In this document: positions 23,072-36,582 of the stretch, piece after piece
Position numbering within the stretch: position 1 is the first letter of the stretch
How the letters are laid out: the number at the start of each line of letters is the position of its first letter
Source of the DNA: Bacteroidales bacterium
GTDB taxonomy: Bacteria > Bacteroidota > Bacteroidia > Bacteroidales > F082
Assembly (NCBI GenBank): GCA_029983675.1
Contig: JASBYY010000004.1
Span: 6,497-70,496 of the forward strand
Length of the DNA: 64,000 bases
Reading direction: 5' to 3'
Made by a program: the position numbers and the translations under genes
The notes under the pieces: generated by a model
What the model was told of the DNA's origin: nothing
Databases searched by the model: none
What the model saw: the letters and a program-made list of their open reading frames with translations, nothing else

Positions 23072-23936
23072 CCCTTAATCCTTGTTGTAGTGGAATTTGA
23101 CTTGACAAAATAAGATATCTTGTACCCAAGGATTTACAAATCGTCTTAATCCTTGTTGTAGTGGAATTTGACTTGACAAGTTATAAGTGAGTCGTTTTAT
23201 AACGACCTTCTGTCTTAATCCTTGTTGTAATTTAAGCCTGTTTTCGATGCTTCACGTTTCAAGTTTTATAACGACCTTCTGTCTTAATCCTTGTTGTAGT
23301 GGAATTTGACTTGACAAACATGATATACAGTATCCTCTGGTCAACAGGGTCTTAATCCTTGTTGTAGTGGAATTTGACTTGACTTTATTTTGCGAACAGG
23401 AACAAGTTCCCACTACGTGTCTTAATCCTTGTTGTAGTGGAATTTGACTTGACGAAAAATAGGTTTGTGTCCATTGTTGGCACAGATACTGTCTTAATCC
23501 TTGTTGTAGTGGAATTTGACTTGACGCACAGAACACCCCGTATTTCGGGGTAAAAATTGTCTTAATCCTTGTTGTAGTGGAATTTGACTTGACTTGTCAT
23601 ATGCGACGAATACAGACTGATAGAAGTCTTAATCCTTGTTGTAGTGGAATTTGACTTGACGGAGCATCCAGAATATCTCCATTTTAAATGGAATGTCTTA
23701 ATCCTTGTTGTAGTGGAATTTGACTTGACCCAAATGCGAATCATCAGCCACTCCAAGTATGAGAGTCTTAATCCTTGTTGTAGTGGAATTTGACTTGACC
23801 TTTGCGGATGACGAAGACGACTTTGCCAAAAGTCTTAATCCTTGTTGTAGTGGAATTTGACTTGACCAGAGATGGAGTAGTGAGGACTGCGAAGGTGGTA
23901 CGTCTTAATCCTTGTTGTAGTGGAATTTGACTTGAC
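23072..23936 (-). CRISPR. CRISPR array: 13 repeat copies of 35 bp, 12 spacers of 32-37 bp
   Basis: The plus-strand repeat is GTCTTAATCCTTGTTGTAGTGGAATTTGACTTGAC. Repeats start at 23072 (2 mismatches), 23143, 23212 (only the first 18 nt conserved), 23281, 23349, 23419, 23491, 23559, 23626, 23695, 23765, 23832 and 23902. Orientation is inferred as minus. The cas genes and AT-rich leader lie on the 23937+ side, the degenerate repeats lie at the far end, and the minus-strand repeat ends in ATTAAGAC. Confidence 0.97.
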
Positions 23937-24385
23937 ACCTTGATTCTCAATATATTGTCATCAATAATCACCTTGTTTGTTTGGCGCAACTCCTTTCATT
24001 TGTTTGTTTTACATAAGCTTTCCTGAATTCTTCGCAAAGATACTGTTTTTTTGAATACAAAAACAGGAATTTTTACACATTATTTTCACTTTGCCTTATC
24101 ATTCAATCATTTACATGGAAAAAAAAGTTCTCAAACCGAACCTCTATTGGGCAAAATCCATCCATTTGCGAAGAAATGGCCTTTCTTTATTTTACATATC
24201 ATTGACAATAAGCATTTTACAATAAGCTCATCCAAAAATGTTCGCAAATGAACGACTCAAATACGCATCAGAATGCAATTTGCGAACAATTCGCGGCGGC
24301 AGTTTTCCCATGCTATTTGGTTACCACTTTCATTATCGGCGTTTTAGCGTTTTACAAAATGTTCGCAAACGATTTGGCCTCCCTC
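23937..24385 (-). promoter_or_regulatory. CRISPR leader (449 bp) with a candidate array promoter
   Basis: This is the non-coding interval between the cas2 stop and the first repeat, AT-rich next to the array. On the minus strand, TATCTTTG (plus 24035-24042) matches the Bacteroides -7 consensus TAnnTTTG about 100 bp upstream of the first repeat. There are five copies of TTTGCGAA[CG]A. Confidence 0.6.
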
Positions 24386-24685
24386 CTACACCATCCGCAC
24401 CGTGTCGGGAGGTTCGCGACGGTCGGGTTGATACACGATCTTCGTATAGCAATTGACACAAACCGGATAATAAATCACCGAATCCTGCCCGTCGTCAACA
24501 ATCTCACCTATCTTTCGCCTGAGTCTGCCGTACACGGCTTCCGTCAGCATACATTCGAACACGCTGTAATTCACGCGTGTTCCGTTTGCCTCAAGCAATT
24601 TCACCACTCGGTTCCGCCGTTTGTCATCCACAATATCGTACGCTACAACTATGAACAATTTCCTGGCGCTTATTCTCTTTACCAT
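24386..24685 (-). CDS. cas2: CRISPR-associated endoribonuclease Cas2
   Basis: 99 aa. The start FIVVAYDIVDDKRRNRVVKLL...YSVFEC is the canonical Cas2 ferredoxin-fold N-terminus. It overlaps the cas1 stop by 7 nt. Confidence 0.9.
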   Translation of the reverse strand: MVKRISARKLFIVVAYDIVDDKRRNRVVKLLEANGTRVNYSVFECMLTEAVYGRLRRKIGEIVDDGQDSVIYYPVCVNCYTKIVYQPDRREPPDTVRMV

Positions 24686-26949
24686 TTTGCAATATAAGGT
24701 TTGAACGTTTTCCCGCTTCCAATATAAGCGGCTATTTCTTTGGCCTGTTCTACAAAGATGCGTTCGAAGGGCATCTCTTCGCCGCGATACTTCTCATACC
24801 TGTTCATGCGCTCAAGCACGCCTTTGGTCAGAATCCTTTTAGTTGCGTCGCACAGAAGGTTTCCTTCCATTTTCAATGCCATGCCCCTTTGCACCATTCC
24901 TATCACCACCCTGTCGGCTCCCTGCGCCCTGAATAGCTCTACGACATCGAAAACCAATGTGGGTTTTCCGGCTTGCCTTTTGTGCAACACCCCGTCCATC
25001 GGGTTCAGGCCCTCGCCGAGCAACGCCTGCCAAACCCTGTTATACAAAAACGAATAGGCATAGTTCAGCATGGAATTGACCAAATCGGTGGCGCCTCGCC
25101 GCACCCTTCCTTCAAAGCCCGCTTTATCGTCTTTAAGCAACTTCCCGACATATTTCCAATAGTGGACAGCGGCCTGTGCTTCTTTTCCTATCAATACCTC
25201 GTTATAGTTTTCGGCAAAAGGCAGCTCCTTGAGTTCGCCGACGATTTCCGACAACTTGGCCGTGGTCAGCGCAAATTGCGTGTCAACATCTTCTTTTGTG
25301 GTCTTATGGTACTTCTGGAAGTACTTCACCAAGTTCGCCTGGTTTTTAAGCTTTCCTAAAATCAGTCGCTTAGCCAGAACGAAGCGTTGGTTTTCGGTCA
25401 TTCGAGCCTGTTGCCCCCAAAGTGTGCTCTCCATGAATTTTAGGCTGAGTACCGAGGCATAATGTACGGAGCTATCAAAAAAATCGACGGGTATTCTCCT
25501 ATCCATGCAGAACCGGATCACATTGCTCGACAGCGACACGCCTTGCCCTATCACGGTAAGATGTCGCAGCGAAGCGGAAGGCTTCTTGTAGGCCATCTTA
25601 CCTTGTATGCGCACGACAATGTTCTGCCCGCTTATTCCAATGTAGCTACCCGGAGTACGGACCACCAATTCGGAGCCTTCGGCTTCTTTTTTCCGATACT
25701 CTGTCTTTCGGCTGTTGATGAGGCGACGATTCTGGTCATCGGCAATTTTCGACTGTTTCTTGCCTTTGACGGCCAGGTAGGTGTCGGTCAGCTGTTGAAG
25801 GATTTGTTTTCGCTTGAGTTGCATTTCAGCCGAAAGAAATGCAATCTCTGCCAATCCGTTTTTCAACACGGAGATATTCCTGATTTTACCGACCTGCTGT
25901 TCTATCATGGTCTGTACTTTTCGCACAAGAGCTTTGTCCAACTCTACCAATGTGTTTTCGGGAAGCAACTTTCCGTAATAGTTGCGTATGCCGTTCCACA
26001 GCTTTGTCTCTTTGTCGGTGAAAACGCCGTTGTGCGACTCGAGACCGTCAATCCGCTGCAAAAGTTCTCTCTTTTTATTTTCGGAAAGAGACAGTCCCGT
26101 TTTGTCCAGTGTGATGCCGAGAAACTCGAAGCCGTCTTCGATTTTCCCGATTTCAGGTGCGTTGAGCGACAGTTGGAGCCGCTCTTTCAGAAAAACCGTC
26201 GCCTCTTCCCTTATGGCCTCGGCCCTGTTCTGCGTTTCGCACAAGATGATGAAATCGTCGGCATAACGCACATACGACCGTGTTCGTGTCAGAATGAACT
26301 GGTCGAACTGGTGCAGGTAGAGATTGGCCAGCATGGGCGACAGTACGGCTCCTTGCGGCACGCCACATTCGATTTCTTCCCATTTCTGTTTCTTGTTTAC
26401 CATGCCCATTTTCACAGAAAGCTGAATCAATCGGTTGATTTCCTCATCGGGAATCAAGGATCGAAGCCTTGCAAAAAGAATATCGTGGTTGATGGTATCG
26501 AAATAGTTGTCAATATCCAAGCGAAGCAGCCACTGATTGGCTTTGTTTTGACATTCAAACAAAGCCCGTCGAATGGCTTTTGCATGACCTTTCTGCGGAC
26601 GATAGCCGTAACTGTTGCCTAAAAACAACTTTTCGAAACGAGGCTCGACGATTTGCTTTATCGCCGTTTGCACCGTCTTGTCTTTCAGCGAAAGCAGCCC
26701 TATCGTCCGGGTTTCACCCGTTTTCTTGGGGATGCCCATCTTTTTATAGGGCTGTGGTTTCCATGTCCCCGAACGCAATTCGGCAATTAGTTCTGTCAAA
26801 TGCTTGTCAAGGCGGTTTTCAAACTCAACGATAGTAAAACCGTCAATGCCTCCAACGCTGTTTTTGGCTTTTACCAGTCGCCATGCCGACATCAGCTGTC
26901 CGAGAGAGCACAATGCTTCAAATAACGATTTACCCATGTTTCGTTTCAA
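24679..26949 (-). CDS. cas1: Reverse transcriptase-Cas1 fusion protein
   Basis: 756 aa. The N-terminal ~330 aa form a group II intron-like RT (GIDG..., LDIDNYFDTINH, GVPQGAVLSPMLANLYL, YVRYADDFIIL). The C-terminal ~320 aa resemble Cas1 (...LHKRQAGKPTLVFDVVELFR...). Confidence 0.9.
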   Translation of the reverse strand: MKRNMGKSLFEALCSLGQLMSAWRLVKAKNSVGGIDGFTIVEFENRLDKHLTELIAELRSGTWKPQPYKKMGIPKKTGETRTIGLLSLKDKTVQTAIKQIVEPRFEKLFLGNSYGYRPQKGHAKAIRRALFECQNKANQWLLRLDIDNYFDTINHDILFARLRSLIPDEEINRLIQLSVKMGMVNKKQKWEEIECGVPQGAVLSPMLANLYLHQFDQFILTRTRSYVRYADDFIILCETQNRAEAIREEATVFLKERLQLSLNAPEIGKIEDGFEFLGITLDKTGLSLSENKKRELLQRIDGLESHNGVFTDKETKLWNGIRNYYGKLLPENTLVELDKALVRKVQTMIEQQVGKIRNISVLKNGLAEIAFLSAEMQLKRKQILQQLTDTYLAVKGKKQSKIADDQNRRLINSRKTEYRKKEAEGSELVVRTPGSYIGISGQNIVVRIQGKMAYKKPSASLRHLTVIGQGVSLSSNVIRFCMDRRIPVDFFDSSVHYASVLSLKFMESTLWGQQARMTENQRFVLAKRLILGKLKNQANLVKYFQKYHKTTKEDVDTQFALTTAKLSEIVGELKELPFAENYNEVLIGKEAQAAVHYWKYVGKLLKDDKAGFEGRVRRGATDLVNSMLNYAYSFLYNRVWQALLGEGLNPMDGVLHKRQAGKPTLVFDVVELFRAQGADRVVIGMVQRGMALKMEGNLLCDATKRILTKGVLERMNRYEKYRGEEMPFERIFVEQAKEIAAYIGSGKTFKPYIAKW

Positions 26950-26985
26950 TACGTCAAAGAACGCTCAATAACAGCCCTCCATCTA

Positions 26986-27888
26986 CTATTTGAACTGTCC
27001 GTAACCCACATTGGTCTTGGCACCGACGCCGACAGTGAGTATGATTTCTTGAAAAAGTTGCGCTTTTTGGTTAGCATTTAAAGAGATTTTCCTTACTCCG
27101 TTGTTCGATTTAATTTCAACCGTACTATCCGTTAGTTTGAACCTAAATTCAAATGTAATGCCCGGCAATACTTTTATGAACATCAATGGAGTCGGATTTT
27201 TTAGAGGATCGGGATGATGTGTGATAAAGTCACTGGCAAGGAACTTCTTGCTTTTTCCCGTTTTTTCAATGTTGATGACAGCATCGAAAAACACATCTTT
27301 CCCTTCGGCATCTTGTTTGCCAAAAATATCATCTTTCAACGTTTTTAATGCTTCGATATCGATATTCTTCAGCATGTTTTCCCATGCGTTCTTATTCTGT
27401 TCATCGGTACATCTCTTTTTTACCTCTTCAAGAATGAATTTTATCGTATCCAACGAGGTTTGATCAGTTTGATCTTTTTCGTTCTCAAACACACTTTTCA
27501 ATACACCTTTGATGGAACTGCCCGGAATAACAGGTTGTCCGGTTGTATGGTCAAAATAAAAGCCTATCTTGATATCGCCTTTTGCATTACTATCGTGCGT
27601 ATAGCCTGAACCACATAATAATCCGGGATAGGTTGTAGCCAGATTAAAATGATGGGAAGCCGCATTATTCTCAATTTGCGTGTAATCTTTCAATGTGTTA
27701 GCAAAAACAGCTTTATAGAATATGTCAAAGGGAGTGACTTTCGCATCTTTGGGAATATCAATGAACAACCTCTCTTTTTCATTATTTTGAGCAGGTGTAA
27801 ATTTTATTTTACGCTTAATCGCATCTTCCGTATATAATCTTTTATATACCATCAAGCCCACATTGGGCGCTATAAAATTCCATGCCAT
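26986..27888 (-). CDS. cmr6: Type III-B RAMP protein Cmr6
   Basis: 300 aa with the RAMP motif PGSSIKGVLKS and a C-terminal glycine-rich loop GVGAKTNVGYGQFK. It is the last gene of the cmr1-6 series. Confidence 0.85.
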   Translation of the reverse strand: MAWNFIAPNVGLMVYKRLYTEDAIKRKIKFTPAQNNEKERLFIDIPKDAKVTPFDIFYKAVFANTLKDYTQIENNAASHHFNLATTYPGLLCGSGYTHDSNAKGDIKIGFYFDHTTGQPVIPGSSIKGVLKSVFENEKDQTDQTSLDTIKFILEEVKKRCTDEQNKNAWENMLKNIDIEALKTLKDDIFGKQDAEGKDVFFDAVINIEKTGKSKKFLASDFITHHPDPLKNPTPLMFIKVLPGITFEFRFKLTDSTVEIKSNNGVRKISLNANQKAQLFQEIILTVGVGAKTNVGYGQFK

Positions 27889-27890
27889 AA

Positions 27891-28286
27891 TTAGTCATTT
27901 TTAGGTTTAGGTGTGGGGTAGGTACGAATAGCTAACTTTAACGCGATGGCACATTCCTGAATCTTCTTTTTCAGACATTCGTCATTATATCGGGTAATGA
28001 CTTCTTCCAATAAATGTTGTTCGTTGTTGAATATGCCTATTTCTGGGCTTTGCAGCATTTTCTCAAGTGCTACCGGTATAAGGCTTCTATCTGCATTGGT
28101 GGTTTGCTCCGCACCTTTTGAATAAAATATCAATGTGGGAAGCAATCCCGATGATATGAGACTTGCACCAAAAGAGGAGATATATCCATTGTAAGTTTTG
28201 TCAATTTCTCCGTTTTTAACTATACCTAATCTGTTGTCTTCCAGCACTTGTATGGCGACAGGGATATATTTTTCTATATTTCTCAT
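27891..28286 (-). CDS. cmr5: Type III-B small subunit Cmr5
   Basis: 131 aa predicted helical protein between cmr4 and cmr6. Its start overlaps the cmr4 stop by 4 nt. The assignment rests mostly on size and position. Confidence 0.7.
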   Translation of the reverse strand: MRNIEKYIPVAIQVLEDNRLGIVKNGEIDKTYNGYISSFGASLISSGLLPTLIFYSKGAEQTTNADRSLIPVALEKMLQSPEIGIFNNEQHLLEEVITRYNDECLKKKIQECAIALKLAIRTYPTPKPKND

Positions 28287-29104
28287 GACTTTGTATTTTT
28301 GAACTTGATTTTATGAAATTTACATAACCCATAGCCTACGCTGCTGTTGGCTCCGATTTGAATCGGTTCTTCTAAGAGTTCCTTTTCAAATTCCGAAAAG
28401 GTTGCGTCGTCTAATAAACCCTGTTTGGGAACCATATAAGTTATAAATATCGTTTGGTGAGGAACCACCTCCTCGTACCAAAGATTTTTGTCCTCATCCA
28501 GGCGATTGCGGGCGATTACAGGTAAGTTTTCAGCATAATTTCTGAATTTATCATCGCTTACCAGGGCATATTGTTGATCAAAAGCTGTAAAATTAATGTC
28601 AACTGTGTCTGAAAATGGCGTTGAATAATCTACCCTTTGCAAATCATCGTCTTCCAGAAATATCCTGTCTACAAGGCCTTCTTCCTTTGTAAACAGTTTA
28701 TCTGTTTCTGTTGGTAGTTTCAGTAGCTCTTTATCAAGAATCATTTTTGCTTTCTCGTTCACAAATTCCACATTTTGAGGACAGAATGTGAGAGCAAACT
28801 GACGATGTGAACATCTTACGGGTAAAGCTACCAGATCAGCATTCAAAAAATTAAGGTTGCCGCTTTCGGTATCATTATCATTATTTGTTTTCTTACCGAA
28901 TAGTAGGTTCGTTTTTTGATCGGTTTTCCCCCAAACGCTCTCAAAATGTTCTCTGAGAGATCCCTTTAAACTTGATGCGTGAATGGTAGGATAATTGAAT
29001 ATCGTGTCGCGTTGTACTAATTTGTCCACGATCCCGTAACTGGCATCACCGCTCCCTACATGTAGGTTGGTTATACACTGAATTAAATACGCTTGTGTTG
29101 TCAT
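28283..29104 (-). CDS. cmr4: Type III-B backbone RAMP protein Cmr4
   Basis: 273 aa. The N-terminus is TNLHVGSGDASYGIVDKLVQRD, followed by PTIHASSLKGSLREHFE and a C-terminal G-rich loop IGANSSVGYGLCKF. Confidence 0.85.
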   Translation of the reverse strand: MTTQAYLIQCITNLHVGSGDASYGIVDKLVQRDTIFNYPTIHASSLKGSLREHFESVWGKTDQKTNLLFGKKTNNDNDTESGNLNFLNADLVALPVRCSHRQFALTFCPQNVEFVNEKAKMILDKELLKLPTETDKLFTKEEGLVDRIFLEDDDLQRVDYSTPFSDTVDINFTAFDQQYALVSDDKFRNYAENLPVIARNRLDEDKNLWYEEVVPHQTIFITYMVPKQGLLDDATFSEFEKELLEEPIQIGANSSVGYGLCKFHKIKFKNTKS

Positions 29105-29110
29105 TTTTTG

Positions 29111-30178
29111 TTATTTTTTAATGGTTTGAATTCTATTAAACCCTATATTTCGGGCATTATTACTCTTATTGAATAATTCTTGGGCCTTTTGCATTTCATC
29201 TTCATTTTCAAAAAACAATATGCTGCCGCGTTTAAGCAAATTATAACGATAGCTCATTTTATACCCTTTTGAAAAGCTGCTGTAATTCTCACTGTTGTTG
29301 GAGCTATGAAGATTTCGGAAAGAGATGTTTTCATTGATTGCAAAAACCACGTGTTCCCATACTTCTTCTTCAACAAAACAGTCGGAAATACAATAAATAG
29401 CCGGTTTAAGGCGTGGCGGAAGGTTAAGTTTAAAATCGGTACGATTACCGCTGCATTCATTTACTTCAAGGAGGAATAATTGCTGTTCGGCTCCCATGGT
29501 AATGAATTGTTTATCATGGCTTAAATTACAATCGATTTCAGCATCAAAGGCAAAAGACCACCCTTTATTCAACTTATACATTACCTGCTTGTAAAATCCG
29601 TCATCTTCCGTTTTTCCTTTTTCCCCTTTTTTATTGCCCACGGTTTCATGTTTGATAAACACAAAATCCGTATCATTTTCTTTATCTTCATCTTTAAAGA
29701 ACTTGAAAGTACTATAATCTTTTACGTTGATAAATGTCGGATTATAGCCAACTTTCGCATCGTACCCTTTCAAATAGTAATTGTTATAGAGTTCTTTTAA
29801 TTCAAATTCTTGATCAAAAGGTGCAATGATATATTTTTCACTTTCTCTAAGAAAATAAAGTGGTGATATTTCATTTATTATTCCAAATTTCTGCTCCGTT
29901 TTTCCATCTTTACCCACGAAGCCATAAATAAAACTATTTTCACCAATCAGATCATTGGCTTGAGATTCTTTTTTGTTTTTACGCGGACTGAGGCAACCGT
30001 TTTTCATCAGTAGATAGTAACGTAACGTTCCAAGCAGGGTGGTTTGTTGGGGATATAATTCAGACCTCACATAGTAGTCCATTTCAAACTTGCCCGGTTC
30101 TCCTTTTTTTTCAGTATGTTTTTCCCCTCCAAAAAAATAGGCATTTACCGGGGTGAGCTTTATTTGATAATTGTTCAT
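29111..30178 (-). CDS. cmr3: Type III-B protein Cmr3
   Basis: 355 aa with N-terminus KLTPVNAYFFGGEK typical of Cmr3. Position and size fit, and there is a 4 nt overlap with the cas10 stop. Confidence 0.75.
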   Translation of the reverse strand: MNNYQIKLTPVNAYFFGGEKHTEKKGEPGKFEMDYYVRSELYPQQTTLLGTLRYYLLMKNGCLSPRKNKKESQANDLIGENSFIYGFVGKDGKTEQKFGIINEISPLYFLRESEKYIIAPFDQEFELKELYNNYYLKGYDAKVGYNPTFINVKDYSTFKFFKDEDKENDTDFVFIKHETVGNKKGEKGKTEDDGFYKQVMYKLNKGWSFAFDAEIDCNLSHDKQFITMGAEQQLFLLEVNECSGNRTDFKLNLPPRLKPAIYCISDCFVEEEVWEHVVFAINENISFRNLHSSNNSENYSSFSKGYKMSYRYNLLKRGSILFFENEDEMQKAQELFNKSNNARNIGFNRIQTIKK

Positions 30179-31821
30179 TGATCTTTTGATTTTTTAGGTT
30201 GAATAAACTGATAGTATCGCAATATAGTGAAGAGGATGTCTTTAAAACGTTTATTTTGCTTGTATTCTTCTTCTTTGCTGCATACCGTAAGATAATCTTG
30301 TTTTAAAACTTTTATTAGCGATGTAAAATAATCGGTAAAAGTGTTTTTCTCTTCATGTATTTCTTCGTTGAAGAAGTTTTCAATGAAAGCATCAATCCGA
30401 TCATTTCGTACCGCATGGATGAAAGTCGTGAAAAATACATCGTCTTTCAACCGCTGAATCATTCCGCTGAGCGTGTCTTTTTTATCTTTTCCTTGCAGCT
30501 GTAAGGTGAGCAATTCATAAATTCTCTTAGCGGAAGCGGTTTTTGACTTGTCGATAAAACACTCCATATACTGACCGCTATGTTTTTGAAAACGAACGCT
30601 TACACCATTTTTATTTGGGAAAAGCTCCTTGTCCTGTTTGCACTTTTCCAACATGTTATGGGCTTGTTCCATCGCTTCACGCATGGGAAATTTATAATAA
30701 GAGAGCATAAAACCATACGATAAAGTGGGAATGGTTACTCCTTGCTCTTCGGCGTATTGACCCAATGTATCGTTGAAATCCTTATCTAAATCTTTGATAA
30801 GGATTGCCAATGATTTGAGATAATTGTCTCCATTGTAAGCAATGGGTAAAAAGGCCAAAATGTCTTCTCCTCCTAAATATATGGCACTCCCACCGTAGTT
30901 GTGGATGCTCTCTTCCGCTTTTTTTCCGAACAGAAGAAGTTTTTCGGAAAAAGTTTTTAATTTTTCCCTATCATTGGCAACACTGCTGAGCAAAGCACCA
31001 ATGTTATCACCATCGGCATACAGCACAGCGTAATATTTATGATAATCCTGCATCTTGTCTTTGAAAACGTCGTTCTTTTTCAACAAGTCAATAATCTGGA
31101 TATCTTCGTTTTTAAAATCTTCTTCTAACAACCGATTGTATGTTGTTGCATCTGCTTCTTTTAACAAGTCTGCAGTAGATATCTCTGCGATTGATTTGAA
31201 GTGCCGTCCTTTTTCATCTCCGAAAGCATCTTTTTTCAGAGCGGTGTTTTCGTTCCATTTCGTAGCAAAATAATCAATCAAAAAATTTGAGTTGATATCA
31301 AATGCATATCTTTTATTTAATTCTTTGTTGTCTAACAGATTGTTAAGGATTTTTAAAACCGAATTATCAGATTTCCCTTCTTTATTCTTAGATGTTGTAA
31401 TAGAGGTCAACTCTTTATCCGTTAAAGAAATTTCAACAATATGGAGATTCAAGTAGTTGCGTAAAAATGCAACAATGTCTCCGTTTTTCAGTGTTGCGTT
31501 TTTACAACAGATGTCATCTGCAAAGAACTTTATCGTATTATCAACAAAGCCTTGAATATCTAATTTTGATTTATTTACAAAATATAGGCGATCGGCATAC
31601 AGCCCAGCCCCATATTTTCCTTTATTCACCCCTTTCTGCGTATTGTCATCTAAAGGTTTGTCATAGGGTAACAGTATCTCCCAATCATTGTCTATAGCCT
31701 GCTCAAGTATTTTCCTCATGAAAAGTGAAAAGAAATAGCTGGCCGCCCATATGCTGCGCGTGCGTTTTGCTTGGGTAAAGGTATCATATATGGGCCCAAT
31801 GGTTATTGCTGTGTATTGCAT
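30175..31821 (-). CDS. cas10: Cas10/Cmr2 large subunit, short form without an HD nuclease domain
   Basis: 548 aa. The palm/cyclase motifs are YAVLYADGDNIG (res 265-276) and YLGGEDILAF (GGED at res 317-320, nt 30862-30873). No N-terminal H..HD motif is present, since the protein starts directly with MQYTAITIGPIYDTF. Confidence 0.85.
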   Translation of the reverse strand: MQYTAITIGPIYDTFTQAKRTRSIWAASYFFSLFMRKILEQAIDNDWEILLPYDKPLDDNTQKGVNKGKYGAGLYADRLYFVNKSKLDIQGFVDNTIKFFADDICCKNATLKNGDIVAFLRNYLNLHIVEISLTDKELTSITTSKNKEGKSDNSVLKILNNLLDNKELNKRYAFDINSNFLIDYFATKWNENTALKKDAFGDEKGRHFKSIAEISTADLLKEADATTYNRLLEEDFKNEDIQIIDLLKKNDVFKDKMQDYHKYYAVLYADGDNIGALLSSVANDREKLKTFSEKLLLFGKKAEESIHNYGGSAIYLGGEDILAFLPIAYNGDNYLKSLAILIKDLDKDFNDTLGQYAEEQGVTIPTLSYGFMLSYYKFPMREAMEQAHNMLEKCKQDKELFPNKNGVSVRFQKHSGQYMECFIDKSKTASAKRIYELLTLQLQGKDKKDTLSGMIQRLKDDVFFTTFIHAVRNDRIDAFIENFFNEEIHEEKNTFTDYFTSLIKVLKQDYLTVCSKEEEYKQNKRFKDILFTILRYYQFIQPKKSKDQ

Positions 31822-31825
31822 GATT

Positions 31826-33238
31826 TTACTTCTTATTTAAATTACTCAATGAGGTATAACCAATTTTTGTTGACGCCATTTTCATAAAGTCCACAAGTGA
31901 AAAATCTTTTGGCGTTGACAAGATGAAATCTTTTTGTTTACTTTCTTCCAAAGAACACATATCATTTCTTTTATTTCTATAATCATGAATTCGGAAAATA
32001 AATTCTTTATCCTGGATTTCTTTTGACAACTCATTTCCTACCAAATAAACATTATTGTCAATAACCTTGAACAGAAGAGGTGACCGAAACCTTTCAATAT
32101 CTGAAGAGAGTTCATAGTAATGCGTTTTATCATTCTCATCGACAATGGTAGCATAATCATTTCTATGCATTCTTTCTGCCTCCTCAACAATTTCATCTCC
32201 TTTCAAAAACACACTAACGATAATAACATCTTTGTCTTTCTCATTATAAAGTTTAAACTCATATTTTGATGACAATCCTAACAATGCACGAATAAAATAA
32301 TATTGGAAAGTCTGTGGATCATTCCATCCTTTTTCTGTTTTCTCATTATTCCCATAAATTGGAGGTTTCTTACCCTTGAGATTAAACCCTTTCCCCCTAA
32401 TGCCTTGTTTTATTTTTCGTTTCTCCCAACGAAAACCTTTGCCAACAAAATATTCGAAAAGTATAGATTTTTTATATATTTCATTGCTATGTCGTGTCTT
32501 AGGTATATTTATACCTGATTTCAGCAACTTATAATCATCATTAATGGTTTGTAAAATCTGAACTATTTCAGAAGACTGTAATGTTTTTTTGTACACAAAA
32601 GAAAACTCTTGTTTCAATAATTCCTCATTATTTTTGAGTTCTTTATTTTTCTGATTGTACTCAATCTTTGTTGGCAAAAAACAACCGAAGCCCTTACTTT
32701 GCCGTGTGCCAAAATTTGTAGAAATGAAAAAAAGCTGTATGTATTTTAAAATTTCTGAGAAAAGATCTTCTTTTTTTGTTAGAATTAAAACGTTTGTGTC
32801 ATCACTTTCAACAATCCCTTTCTTTTCTATTTTGTTCCAATCAGCGATTACATTATGACTTTTTACTATTTGAGAATTCTGTTTTTCCTGTGCAAAAAAA
32901 GGACTGTTGCTTATTACCTTAATCTCTCGATTTTCAAGGTTTTTTGCATCGCTCCCTTTAATATATGAAGCCAATAAGTATTCAGTTCTGGTTGAATTGC
33001 TATTAATATCTATCCTCATCTTATAATCTAATGCCGGATGTTCTCCTTTGCCTACAAGCCATTTGTTCTCTTTGGCCGTATTGATGCCTTGTTGGTAGTC
33101 TCCGTTTCCCAATTTCGTCAGAATAAACTTATCCAACTTCGGCTTCACTTCGCTTGCCCGCAGGGTGGCTCCCTCCTGATCGTGCTGAAAGTGGATCAGA
33201 GGTGTGTGCTGTTTTAAAGTTACTTTTAATGTATGCAT
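31826..33238 (-). CDS. cmr1: Type III-B RAMP protein Cmr1
   Basis: About 470 aa counted from the ATG at 33238 (MHTLKVTLKQHTPLIHFQHD...). It has the G-rich loop TNFGTRQSKGFGCF and is the first of the cmr series. The track ORF extends to 33295. Confidence 0.8.
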   Translation of the reverse strand: MHTLKVTLKQHTPLIHFQHDQEGATLRASEVKPKLDKFILTKLGNGDYQQGINTAKENKWLVGKGEHPALDYKMRIDINSNSTRTEYLLASYIKGSDAKNLENREIKVISNSPFFAQEKQNSQIVKSHNVIADWNKIEKKGIVESDDTNVLILTKKEDLFSEILKYIQLFFISTNFGTRQSKGFGCFLPTKIEYNQKNKELKNNEELLKQEFSFVYKKTLQSSEIVQILQTINDDYKLLKSGINIPKTRHSNEIYKKSILFEYFVGKGFRWEKRKIKQGIRGKGFNLKGKKPPIYGNNEKTEKGWNDPQTFQYYFIRALLGLSSKYEFKLYNEKDKDVIIVSVFLKGDEIVEEAERMHRNDYATIVDENDKTHYYELSSDIERFRSPLLFKVIDNNVYLVGNELSKEIQDKEFIFRIHDYRNKRNDMCSLEESKQKDFILSTPKDFSLVDFMKMASTKIGYTSLSNLNKK

Positions 33239-33245
33239 AACAGTC

Positions 33246-33653
33246 TTATTTTTTAGTTTTTGAGTTTGCAGAATTAAGAATGATGGATAACCCATCGATT
33301 ATTTTTTTGTAGAGTTCAATATCATGTTCAAGCAAGGCTATCTTGGAGTTGTAAGTGTCTTCAATAGAACTTTTGTCTTTTCCCAATTTTTCGGTTTTCT
33401 GCTTTAATTCATTGATTTCATTCTGAAGTGTTTCATCAGAAGCAACATTCACCTTTGCAATTAGATTCCAGTATTTTTCCTGTTCAAACGACTTTGTTTT
33501 CATCTTTCGAGCAAAGCGATTCTGAATGCAAGGTTTTACAATATGTTTCAACAAGAACACAAGGGCAACTAATCCGATGACACCCCAACATAAAGACGGG
33601 ATGGCATTCACTACATTCTGCCAATCTACGGCTAATAATACCAAGTCTTTCAT
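33246..33653 (-). CDS. Small membrane-anchored coiled-coil protein, uncharacterised, embedded in the type III-B operon
   Basis: 135 aa with one predicted TM helix (AIPSLCWGVIGLVALVFLL) followed by a K/E/L-rich coiled-coil-like segment. Its ATG overlaps the CorA-like stop (ATGA at 33650-33653), and it ends 7 nt before the cmr1 ATG. Confidence 0.65.
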   Translation of the reverse strand: MKDLVLLAVDWQNVVNAIPSLCWGVIGLVALVFLLKHIVKPCIQNRFARKMKTKSFEQEKYWNLIAKVNVASDETLQNEINELKQKTEKLGKDKSSIEDTYNSKIALLEHDIELYKKIIDGLSIILNSANSKTKK

Positions 33654-35116
33654 TTTATCTTCCTTTTAATGATCAATATAACTCCAATTACTACTGAGGC
33701 AACAAAACCCATGAGAGCAAACTGATAACCCCAGATATTGAACCAACGGGACAATCCTCCGCATCCGTTCAATGCCGTGTTACTCATCCCGAAGATGCCG
33801 GCGACAACCGTTATCGGAACAAAAATCGTTGCAATCCATGTGAGGAGTGATACCGTATTGTTGACTCTACGATCTTCTCGCAAAGTTACATAGTTGTATA
33901 ATTCCTCTATTTCTTTATCCAGTTTTTCTACGTGTTCGTTTATTCGTAACAGCTTGTACAGTTTCTCATACATCTCAATGCCTTGATCTTGTGCCGAAAC
34001 CTCCCGGAAATGAATCTTGTTGACAAAACGGATGTATTCTTTGTACAAGGAACTCAATTTCAAGCTCAACCCTTTCTTGTTATCCATATTGCTGATGTTT
34101 GTCACCTCTGCCGAGAATCGCAAAATCGAGGCTTTTTGAACCAAAACAAGTTCGGACATCCGAGCATACTCTGTTTCAAAATATTGAATTAGAAAATTAG
34201 GACATGTTGTATTGGCTAAATAGACCATTGAATACCGTGACACACCATACAACGAGCACCATTTTTGCCAGCGTTCGTAGGTAGATTCCTTTATGAGTGT
34301 TTTCTGCATTTCCGTATTTTGGCAGCTCATACCATTCGGATTATCAACAAACAGAAACTCATACCAATTATTACTCATGATGAAGTCTTCGTACCCTCCG
34401 CCACAGAACTGATTAGCCCATTCATCGTTCTTATACCATGACAGCACAAACATCCTATCGTCAATAACCGGTTTCAGCTGAATATTAGCTGCCACTTCAT
34501 GGATCATATCCGTAATAAAATCCGCCGGTTTGTTGTGCGGTGTTTTGTTGTCATATCGGCTGAAATCTTCGCAATAGCCGGTTTCACGTCCGTGGAGTCC
34601 GATGAATTCCAATTTTTGGGCAATCAGAAAGCGATTTTCCACATCTTTGATAAAAGGTGGAAAAACTCTTCTGCCATACTGATTGATATTCAACACAGCC
34701 TCCGGGTCTGCATATCTTCTGTTTTCCATGAAAAATGATAGAACACCAACGCCGGTCGAATACAGGTTCAAGTTGATGGCTTTTACATTCAACTCATATT
34801 CTTTCCCGCCGGCACAAGTTATTTTATACAATACCTCTCCGTGTTTTGGCTCATTTCGTTCATAATGGCGAATTAAAGAACCGTTTGAACCGTTGTCATA
34901 CAAGGCCTCGTGAACAAATTCATAAAAATAGTTTTTCTCGTTGTACAAATCGTCCGATTCCTGATTATTGGCAGGTGTTGTCACTCTTTCCCAATTGTCC
35001 GAATCGGAATACTCGATTTTATTCAGGTCGATTTGTTCCGACAAGGTTTTCTCTTCAAAACCTCTAACATCCCATCGAAAGGGGAATTGAAAATTATGAT
35101 AACTATATTCCATCAT
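33650..35116 (-). CDS. CorA-like membrane protein (type III CRISPR-associated CorA effector candidate)
   Basis: 488 aa with a ~420 aa soluble N-terminal part. The C-terminal architecture is CorA-like: TM1 (LLTWIATIFVPITVVAGIFGMS), a short loop, TM2 (YQFALMGFVASVVIGVILII), then a basic tail KRKIK. The signature is GMS (nt 33782-33790) where canonical CorA has GMN. Confidence 0.75.
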   Translation of the reverse strand: MMEYSYHNFQFPFRWDVRGFEEKTLSEQIDLNKIEYSDSDNWERVTTPANNQESDDLYNEKNYFYEFVHEALYDNGSNGSLIRHYERNEPKHGEVLYKITCAGGKEYELNVKAINLNLYSTGVGVLSFFMENRRYADPEAVLNINQYGRRVFPPFIKDVENRFLIAQKLEFIGLHGRETGYCEDFSRYDNKTPHNKPADFITDMIHEVAANIQLKPVIDDRMFVLSWYKNDEWANQFCGGGYEDFIMSNNWYEFLFVDNPNGMSCQNTEMQKTLIKESTYERWQKWCSLYGVSRYSMVYLANTTCPNFLIQYFETEYARMSELVLVQKASILRFSAEVTNISNMDNKKGLSLKLSSLYKEYIRFVNKIHFREVSAQDQGIEMYEKLYKLLRINEHVEKLDKEIEELYNYVTLREDRRVNNTVSLLTWIATIFVPITVVAGIFGMSNTALNGCGGLSRWFNIWGYQFALMGFVASVVIGVILIIKRKIK

Positions 35117-35849
35117 TTATGATTTTACTAATTGATTCAACATAATTCTTTATTTCATCGGATGAGAAACGTCCTCTTGGCAGACCGAAGAAGCCGCTTT
35201 CTCCGCCCCCGTGAAACGCCCGTCCTGTTTTGACTTCCTCTTGAAAACAATTGACAAGTTGAGGTTGTCTTTCTCCATAATAGACCAATTCCGCATTGTT
35301 ATAAACCAACAGGTTCCGGAAAGGATACAGGTAATCGACTATGGGTGAAAACCTGGAAACAGAGGTATATACTATTTTTAGATTTCCCTTTGATACGGCT
35401 TGTCGAGCATCTTCTTCCGCTATTTTTTCTTCCTCTTCCGTTACACCTTGGGCTTTCCGATCCGCCTGCCTGATGGATGATATTTCTTCATCCGTTGCTC
35501 CCAAAGCCTTCATCCCTCCGATGTATGCCGAATCGTTAGCGACAACCAGTTGCTGCCGGCGGTTCAACGGTACGTGCAGTAGGTCGGCAACCTGCTCCAA
35601 TGCGGATTTTTTCCCAAAATAATCGTTGTGGTGGTCAATGCGGACATAATGTGCAGGCGGAAGAATGTCTTCTCTCAATTCAATACCGTAAAACAGATCG
35701 GTTTCGTTGATTTCAGCCTGATATGCACTGAGCGTTGCATTATTCCACGACAAGCCGTTATCATGAAAACATTCACCACTTGCTAACAACATGTCCCTTA
35801 TCGTAAGCATCTCCAAATCATGTCCACCCAATAGAAAGATTCTCTTCAT
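35103..35849 (-). CDS. DHH-family phosphodiesterase (NrN-like, CRISPR-associated)
   Basis: 248 aa with GGHDLEM near the N-terminus, a DHH motif (VRIDHHND) and a GGG motif (FHGGGESG) late in the protein. It overlaps the CorA-like start by 14 nt. Confidence 0.7.
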   Translation of the reverse strand: MKRIFLLGGHDLEMLTIRDMLLASGECFHDNGLSWNNATLSAYQAEINETDLFYGIELREDILPPAHYVRIDHHNDYFGKKSALEQVADLLHVPLNRRQQLVVANDSAYIGGMKALGATDEEISSIRQADRKAQGVTEEEEKIAEEDARQAVSKGNLKIVYTSVSRFSPIVDYLYPFRNLLVYNNAELVYYGERQPQLVNCFQEEVKTGRAFHGGGESGFFGLPRGRFSSDEIKNYVESISKIINDGI

Positions 35850-35871
35850 AACAAACCCTTATCCTTTGTCG

Positions 35872-36582
35872 TTAAATACTTACCTCCATCCTCTTCACCA
35901 TTCCGAACCCCACGCTCACGCTTTTGCCCAGACCGATATAGTCGGGCAGGCTCACGTTGCACTTGAACTGCACGTCAAAGCCCTGCATCTTGACACCTTT
36001 ATAAGAATAGATGCGTGCATCTTCCAGTGCCGTGATGCGCACTTTCACGTCTTTTTCAAAATGAATGTCGAGACCGGTAGCAAAGGAAAGAATATTGCCC
36101 GTCAAGACACGCTCTAAAAATTCACATTGCTCCGCAAGACTTTCCAACTTCTTGTATTCCTGATAGTTCTCCTGATTAAGCGGCAGCCATTTGCGCAAAG
36201 TGTACGAAAACCATTCATCCCACACCTGCACCAATACCTGATCGGCTTTCACTTGCGACACTTCTAAATGCACCGGCCTTTCATTTATATTAATATCGAA
36301 ATTGCAGTTAGAGAAAAACTCGCCAATGGCCTCCGTTCCGTCACCGATACAAACGATGGCCGCCTTGCTGCCGATACGTTTGTATTGTATCAGTGGATAG
36401 GCATAACGGAATCCGCCATCCTGATGGTTGTGAAACAGCACATCGGCCTCGCCGCCCATGGAAGCGTTGACTGCTACCCTGAAAAACGGCACCTCTCCTT
36501 GACAAATCTCGTTTTTAAACTTCACTCTTAAGATCTTCATGCCCGATCGTTTTTCTAGCTCATTGATTTCCAACATATACAA
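35872..36582 (-). CDS. cas6: CRISPR-associated endoribonuclease Cas6
   Basis: 236 aa, with an alternative start at 36540 (MKILRVKF...). It has a C-terminal glycine-rich loop GLGKSVSVGFGMV typical of Cas6 and is the first gene of the operon. Confidence 0.75.
   Translation of the reverse strand: MYMLEINELEKRSGMKILRVKFKNEICQGEVPFFRVAVNASMGGEADVLFHNHQDGGFRYAYPLIQYKRIGSKAAIVCIGDGTEAIGEFFSNCNFDININERPVHLEVSQVKADQVLVQVWDEWFSYTLRKWLPLNQENYQEYKKLESLAEQCEFLERVLTGNILSFATGLDIHFEKDVKVRITALEDARIYSYKGVKMQGFDVQFKCNVSLPDYIGLGKSVSVGFGMVKRMEVSI

Follow-up and report, generated by a model that had tools for sequence, protein, structure and literature searches.

What is a CorA-like membrane protein doing inside a CRISPR operon when it has lost the asparagine by which its superfamily is known? 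The question is raised by a gene, here called corA, in a stretch of 64,000 nucleotides from a Bacteroidales bacterium (lineage F082; GenBank assembly GCA_029983675.1, contig JASBYY010000004.1, positions 6,497 to 70,496), which we refer to throughout as the window. The Asn of the GxN motif defines the 2-TM-GxN superfamily (TM, transmembrane), and at the predicted pore mouth of the corA product GMN is replaced by GMS. We conclude that, very probably, the protein is a CRISPR effector of the CorA-1 clade and the type III-B (Cmr) locus around its gene uses SAM-AMP, a conjugate of S-adenosylmethionine (SAM), as its signal. Homology and context speak strongly for gating by SAM-AMP: the protein is 46% identical to a CorA of the type found in Bacteroides fragilis (BfrCorA), its gene adjoins one for the phosphodiesterase NrN, the Cmr locus is complete, and the equivalents of two acidic residues of B. 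fragilis Cas10, D70 and E151, are in place. In our reading the replacement of GMN by GMS, at the outer mouth of the pore, is either tolerated or tunes the protein, and is not what makes it an effector.

Results

Family membership of the window CorA

The CRISPR-associated CorA-like profile of PADLOC (PDLC01174) matches the window CorA over residues 3-482 (E 1.3e-130), and a B. fragilis-type CorA, P0132, aligns with it over its full length at 46% identity (E 5e-152). P0132, a protein of 491 residues, is the cluster representative retrieved with the B. fragilis sequence, which we had reconstructed by machine reading of Supplementary Fig. 10 in PMC10600005. BfrCorA is an effector shown experimentally to bind SAM-AMP, and alanine substitution of either its RR or its DD residue pair is reported to have abolished immunity in B. 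fragilis (Chi et al., PMC10600005). Both pairs have counterparts in the window protein (Table 1). They are found in 365 (RR) and 363 (DD) of the 373 sequences in a family set that combines 120 close homologues with 106 sequences related to the B. fragilis protein and 147 50%-identity representatives; the CRISPR CorA family as a whole comprises 1076 clusters at 50% identity (E <= 1e-30). Judged from these alignments, the window gene is a typical representative of a family of CRISPR-associated CorA proteins that respond to SAM-AMP and have been characterized before.

Similarity to canonical CorA is confined to the C-terminal part. Pfam PF01544 matches at residues 381-485 only, with 42.9 bits where the cut-off is 27 (E 4.8e-11), the Thermotoga maritima CorA sequences of the PDB match at about residues 379-482 in single-sequence and profile searches (E 1e-5 to 5e-10), and the corA equivalog of NCBIfam, TIGR00383, scores 36.3 bits, below its cut-off of 200.75. 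An earlier reading of the DNA, made from the letters and their open reading frames (ORFs) and here called the sequence-only reading, had limited the CorA-like part to about 70 residues and had recognized no motif upstream of it. The extent is in fact about 100 residues, and the upstream part is covered by the CRISPR CorA profile and carries the RR and DD pairs.

The same reading described the C-terminal layout correctly. TM1 ends in AGIFGMS and is followed by a loop, TM2 and the basic tail KRKIK, the terminus reading ...TVSLLTWIATIFVPITVVAGIFGMSNT-ALNGCGGLSRWFNI-WGYQFALMGFVASVVIGVILIIKRKIK; 19-residue hydropathy windows pick out two hydrophobic segments, starting at about residues 420-431 and 461-470. 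The codons of GMS lie where they had been placed, at nucleotides (nt) 33782-33790, with the preceding Phe codon at 33793-33791. Ser445 is encoded by AGT, a single transition from the Asn codon AAT. The G-x-N of canonical CorA is thus absent, with GMS in its place, and the outer loop, NTALNGCGGLSRWFNIWGYQ, does not contain the MPEL motif.

As a side observation, many relatives, among them the homologues P0008, P0019, P0022, P0046, P0075, P0078, P0079, P0090 and P0109 and many of the 50%-identity representatives, are 723-789 residues long. In these longer proteins, some of which are among the closest homologues, the CorA-family part does not start until about residue 250-360, which is consistent with fusions of NrN to CorA like those reported from Aliarcobacter.

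Conservation of the pore-mouth motif

Of the 373 family sequences, 314 (84%) have Asn at the third motif position, 14 have Ser, 9 Thr and 8 Gly, and other residues, Phe and Asp among them, are scattered; exactly GMN is found in 255. The MPEL loop motif is missing from 372 of 374 family sequences. Together with a hypervariable loop and TM2 and a sub-cut-off equivalog score, the missing MPEL sets the whole CRISPR CorA family apart from canonical CorA. The sequence-only reading had taken GMS as a mark of the effector. It is not a hallmark of the family, since the SAM-AMP-binding BfrCorA itself reads WGMN and the great majority of its relatives keep the Asn.

The serine occurs in a clade consisting of the window protein, clusters P0001-P0006 and loci L001, L002 and L015-L018, and also in two scattered 50%-identity representatives, P0245 and P0362. 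It is kept in orthologues at 85-98% identity, which include metagenome-assembled genomes (MAGs) labelled Ca. Limimorpha (96%) and Tannerella (85%). TM1 with GMS is 99% identical inside the clade and is one of its two best-conserved segments, and the ratio of nonsynonymous to synonymous substitution rates (dN/dS) of corA against three orthologues from the clade is 0.09-0.20. Because of these two results we regard the GMS clade as not decaying but strongly constrained, with the Ser selectively maintained. GMS is a rare variant of a small lineage, with no sign of a new kind of protein. Our literature search on the GMN motif of CRISPR CorA proteins turned up no relevant paper.

Structure prediction

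An AlphaFold2 (AF2) monomer model built from 109 sequences (predicted local distance difference test, pLDDT, 87.3; predicted template-modelling score, pTM, 0.82) consists of a mixed alpha/beta domain (residues 1-300), three helices, a 56-residue helix (392-447) that ends at GMS, a 14-residue loop (448-461) and a last helix (462-487). When the full-length model was compared with the PDB by Foldseek, T. maritima CorA chains took all of the top ten places (E 9e-6 to 1.6e-3), in alignments of up to 352 columns with TM-scores of 0.2-0.3. No structure of a CRISPR CorA was among the PDB sequence and Foldseek matches.

Modelled alone (pLDDT 79), the N-terminal domain (residues 1-305) matched nothing in the PDB significantly (best E 0.26), and the cytoplasmic domains of CorA, ZntB and Mrs2 were absent from its top 50 Foldseek matches, although Foldseek may overlook very remote similarity of this domain. 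This null result agrees with the description of the CorA N-terminal part as a 'unique fold' (PMC10600005). In the monomer model the stalk and two-TM part is CorA-like, and the repurposed CorA funnel domain that the sequence-only reading had envisaged finds no match. We considered a diverged CorA funnel as the source of the N-terminal domain and set it aside as unsupported, given the empty N-domain search and the low full-length TM-scores.

The type III-B locus and its Cas10

By gene content the locus is a complete type III-B system, with Cas6b, NrN, CorA, a small ORF, Cmr1-6, a reverse transcriptase (RT)-Cas1 fusion, Cas2 and a CRISPR array (Table 1). Its cas genes are intact ORFs, tightly packed and all on the minus strand, and nrn overlaps the start of corA by 14 nt. 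Housekeeping genes, for a Na+-pyrophosphatase and a Na+/H+ exchanger, flank the locus. The order cas6b-nrn-corA-cmr1-6 recurs in the 14 related loci recovered, from Bacteroidales and others, and in four syntenic relatives; Shmakov et al. were the first to point out this CorA/NrN type III-B architecture (bioRxiv 10.1101/270033). Profile searches of the locus proteins detected no Csm6-2 or CARF gene.

Residues D77 and E167 of the window Cas10 align with D70 and E151 of the B. fragilis enzyme, which Chi et al. tie to SAM-AMP synthesis and to the binding of SAM rather than ATP (PMC10600005), and neither column varies among ten CorA-linked Cas10s. Pairwise BLAST misplaced E151, which a multiple alignment assigned to window E167; several genes of the B. 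fragilis genome locus (L020) carry frameshifts, and we used that locus for residue mapping only. The palm motif of the window Cas10 reads GGED (residues 317-320, nt 30862-30873, minus strand). GGED is also present in the 96%-identical Cas10s of L016-L018, whereas other CorA-linked Cas10s have GGDD, and in L015 a CorA 98% identical to that of the window is paired with a GGDD Cas10. Because both acidic positions are kept, activity of the GGED Cas10 appears plausible.

Table 1. Features of the CRISPR locus, in window coordinates.
Feature	Position	Strand	Evidence or remark
corA, CRISPR-associated CorA-family effector (predicted)	33650-35116	-	488-residue ORF; PADLOC, Pfam and identity to P0132
R149-R150, counterpart of B. 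fragilis CorA R152-R153	34667-34672	-	pairwise alignment
D219-D220, counterpart of B. fragilis CorA D219-D220	34457-34462	-	pairwise alignment
TM1, residues 421-447, end of the long stalk/TM1 helix	33776-33856	-	hydropathy, AF2
G443-M444-S445, replacing the GMN pore-mouth motif	33782-33790	-	codons ggg-atg-agt at 33790-33782
TM2, residues 462-487, with basic tail KRKIK	33656-33733	-	AF2, hydropathy
small ORF, 135 residues, N-terminal TM helix and charged helical tail	33246-33653	-	
nrn, DHH-family phosphodiesterase, predicted SAM-AMP degrader	35103-35849	-	PADLOC DHH_CorA, E 7.5e-71
nrn DHH motif, residues 72-74	35628-35636	-	
cas6b	35872-36582	-	Pfam Cas6b_N and Cas6b_C
cmr1	31826-33295	-	PADLOC Cmr1, E 1.5e-73, residues 20-434; true start probably at M20, nt 33238
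cas10/cmr2	30175-31821	-	no recognizable HD domain
cmr3	29111-30178	-	NCBIfam/Pfam
cmr4	28283-29104	-	NCBIfam/Pfam
cmr5	27891-28286	-	NCBIfam/Pfam
cmr6	26986-27888	-	NCBIfam/Pfam
RT-cas1 fusion	24679-26949	-	Pfam RVT_1 and Cas_Cas1
cas2	24386-24685	-	Pfam CRISPR_Cas2, E 1.1e-22
CRISPR array, about 12-13 copies of the 35-nt repeat GTCTTAATCCTTGTTGTAGTGGAATTTGACTTGAC	23072-23936		

A small ORF coupled to corA

The gap between corA and cmr1 holds a small ORF whose ATG overlaps the corA stop codon (ATGA). It matches no family in Pfam, NCBIfam, PADLOC or PHROGs, and its dN/dS is 0.10-0.25. Homologues of its sequence come next after corA in L015-L018 and in the closest five among the 14 related loci, and ORFs of similar architecture, 89-161 residues long, fill the same gap in five more. 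Position and architecture are kept in 10 of the 13 related loci that we examined. Such an ORF, of 159 residues and again with the ATGA overlap, lies in the B. fragilis-type locus as well, and it is also present in a named B. fragilis genome. No homology between the window-type and B. fragilis-type ORFs was found by hhalign (probability 4%); they have position and architecture alone in common. The loci with a small ORF of this position and architecture are L001-L005, L008-L012, L015-L018 and L019 (11473-11952).

The searched passages of the CorA/SAM-AMP literature do not mention the small ORF, and a related search, for type III CRISPR CorA together with a coiled-coil transmembrane protein, found no paper. 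It may be a partner of the CorA effector that has gone unrecognized.

In the named B. fragilis genome (GCA_024792895.1; L020:10001-11266) corA and cas10 are split, and the stretch covered by a called protein of 421 residues also includes the small downstream ORF, frameshifted and 97% identical. Because several genes of that locus are broken, the splits are probably an assembly error.

A mosaic locus

We compared window positions 23349-36448 with L015, L016, L001 and L002. The housekeeping flank has about 85% nucleotide identity to the syntenic relatives, and the block running from the 3' part of cas6b through nrn and corA to the small ORF has 91-95%. L016 is 88-96% identical across cas10-cmr6 but has an unrelated cassette as its cmr1 (34% amino acid identity). 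In L015 the entire Cmr module has been replaced (Cas10 28% identical), while identity is 98-100% for NrN, CorA and the small ORF. Recombination therefore acts on the effector module and on the Cmr module independently, which fits a coupling of the two by a diffusible signal.

Some observations concern the adaptation end of the locus. The array includes a duplicated stretch of spacer and partial repeat at about 23194-23298, and none of its spacers matched any of 50,697 phage records. A 149-residue ORF (24248-24697, plus strand) overlaps cas2 on the opposite strand. In the public contigs of L016 and L017, a 149-residue gene is called opposite the cas operon right after RT-cas1, and no cas2 is called. 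Since the minus-strand ORF matches Pfam CRISPR_Cas2, cas2 is the real gene and the public annotation of these two contigs is probably wrong.

Discussion

We propose a model where binding of target RNA by the Cmr complex would activate Cas10, which has no recognizable HD domain but carries GGED and the acceptor-site residues D77 and E167. Cas10 would then join ATP to SAM, and the resulting SAM-AMP would bind the soluble part of CorA at a site between subunits that includes R149/R150 and D219/D220. Binding would open the presumed pentameric two-TM pore, membrane integrity would be lost, and the infected cell would arrest or die; NrN, encoded next door, would degrade SAM-AMP. For the window system, our data establish membership of the family, retention of the functional residues, the setting of the locus and purifying selection; we infer the synthesis and binding of SAM-AMP, the assembly of the pentamer and the opening of the pore from the B. 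fragilis precedent. SAM-AMP binding and Cas10-dependent growth arrest have, according to the text of Chi et al., been demonstrated for the B. fragilis protein alone, and its pentamer is described there as modelled, not solved (PMC10600005). What the sequence-only reading had concluded, that the protein is a ligand-gated effector responding to the product of Cas10, survives on homology and locus context; its arguments from GMS and from a repurposed funnel do not.

Several points weigh against this proposal. Loss of the Asn could in principle impair conduction. The palm motif of Cas10 is GGED and not GGDD, so the Cas10 product is not certain. The transmembrane region of our monomer model is of low confidence (pLDDT 54-79). 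Even for the B. fragilis protein, the pore mechanism of CorA is presented as a postulate (PMC10600005; PMC13294483).

How much, then, should be read into the serine? It is possible, though we are inclined to doubt it, that N445S is functionally meaningful, altering selectivity or conductance, for example through a wider or less Mg2+-selective mouth, and marking a distinct subtype of CRISPR CorA. No residue of the canonical motif is more conserved than the Asn, which most of the family keeps; the near identity of TM1 and GMS within the clade, together with purifying selection, indicates a Ser that is maintained and not drifting; and GMS recurs in the unrelated representatives P0245 and P0362. 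But about 16% of the family has lost the Asn in various ways (to S, T, G, F, D and others), MPEL is gone almost throughout, and we identified no co-varying change. The varied losses and the missing MPEL suggest instead that, across this family, constraint on the outer mouth is in general relaxed. The opposite proposition, that loss of the Asn killed the channel and that the locus is degrading around an inactivated effector, strikes us as very improbable. In its favor, the GMN of canonical CorA is intolerant of mutation, as known for the Salmonella and T. maritima proteins, and the window Cas10 has a non-canonical palm motif too. Yet every gene of the locus is an intact ORF, dN/dS is low for corA and for nrn (0.14), and TM1 is among the best-conserved segments of the clade. 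Moreover, GMS persists in orthologues including the Ca. Limimorpha- and Tannerella-labelled MAGs, and GMS CorAs are paired with both GGDD and GGED Cas10s.

A SAM-AMP-gated effector also has to be set against other roles and other ligands. We give almost no credence to a housekeeping Mg2+/Co2+ transporter that merely adjoins the cas genes, in keeping with the sequence-only reading, which had thought such a transporter unlikely and is here upheld by homology and cas context. The Pfam CorA match above the gathering score and the rank of CorA as top structural match would suit a transporter, but the equivalog score falls far below its cut-off, and the likeness stops at the C-terminal 100 or so residues, with neither the Asn of GMN nor the MPEL loop and with an N-terminal domain that is not CorA-like. 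Inside the cas operon, corA overlaps both nrn and the small ORF, an arrangement conserved across loci, and the higher identity of the nrn-corA-small ORF block than of its flanks indicates that the block travels with the CRISPR locus. A CRISPR CorA gated by another ligand, such as a cyclic oligoadenylate or SAM-AMP2, is improbable. Such ligands have been put forward or demonstrated for other clades of CorA: CorAs activated by cyclic hexaadenylate (cA6) have been proposed by Hoikkala et al. (PMC11229360), type III-D2 systems make SAM-AMP2 (PMC13294483), and the GGED of the window Cas10 is unusual. Against this, the locus encodes NrN, a member of a family of SAM-AMP-specific degrading enzymes, and contains no Csm6-2 or CARF gene; the D70 and E151 equivalents of Cas10 are conserved, as is the RR/DD site of a CorA nearly half identical to a SAM-AMP-binding protein; and the 98%-identical CorA of L015 is paired with a GGDD Cas10. 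A SAM-AMP-gated CRISPR effector thus remains the reading that we prefer.

Beyond the assignment itself, it is tempting to speculate on two matters together, and we hold their combination only tentatively, as a conjecture we would not bet on: that the toxicity of CRISPR CorA is independent of a Mg2+-selective filter, and that the small ORF is an unrecognized third component of the CorA module. Filter independence is suggested because the Asn has been lost repeatedly whereas RR and DD are about 98% conserved, and, if true, it would favor a non-selective pore or membrane disruption. The case for a third component comes from translation coupled to corA through ATGA and from conserved position and architecture. 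As far as the published text says, the small ORF was absent from the reconstitutions, a gap that could be relevant to what is unexplained in E. coli, namely the toxicity of CorA and the dependence on NrN.

The window adds one more to the type III-B loci of the SAM-AMP/CorA kind, this one from a Bacteroidales lineage that is uncultured. Its value is modest and comparative: in a strongly constrained clade the signature Asn is dispensable, while the putative ligand residues are nearly invariant family-wide. This natural exchange of Ser for Asn offers a way to ask if immunity through CRISPR CorA depends on ion selectivity, a mechanism that is still a postulate in the literature. For those who work on the B. 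fragilis model there are also by-products, namely the GGED Cas10, the exchange of Cmr modules beside a fixed nrn-corA block and, the most interesting of them, the small membrane-anchored ORF translationally coupled to corA.

Comparison with known systems

The closest counterpart is the B. fragilis system. The two CorA proteins are of nearly equal size (488 and 491 residues) and have in common the RR and DD pairs and the succession of stalk, TM1, loop, TM2 and basic tail. Their genes have the same neighbors, Cas6b, NrN, Cmr1-6, RT-Cas1 and Cas2; both Cas10s lack a recognizable HD domain and have the same two acidic residues, and each locus has a small TM ORF that overlaps the stop codon of corA. 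The differences are GMS in place of GMN, GGED in place of GGDD, a periplasmic loop with 0% and a TM2 with 23% identity, and a small downstream ORF without detectable sequence similarity. Between cas6b and nrn the B. fragilis-type locus furthermore has an NYN ribonuclease gene (L019:8623-9249), whereas the window has none there (junction 35849-35872).

The window protein resembles canonical CorA (T. maritima; PDB 4i0u and 3jcf) in its long stalk helix, which continues into TM1, and in the short outer loop, the TM2 and the basic C-terminus that follow. Unlike canonical CorA, it has neither the GMN Asn nor the MPEL loop, its first 305 residues bear no detectable similarity to the cytoplasmic domain, and its gene is encoded in a cas operon.

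Other CRISPR CorAs differ in their partners. The type III-D2 CorA of Gammaproteobacteria bacterium HyVt-522, which is required for Cas10-dependent growth arrest, is by its description, like the window protein, a CorA-like two-TM effector, and it uses messengers of the SAM-AMP type, as we propose for the window system; its authors give about 15% identity to type III-B CorA (PMC13294483). It responds to SAM-AMP as well as to SAM-AMP2 and is paired with a toxin-antitoxin module, not with NrN (PMC13294483). In NrN-CorA fusions, such as that reported from Aliarcobacter butzleri (PMC10600005), a single protein unites the same two domains that the window encodes as separate, overlapping genes.

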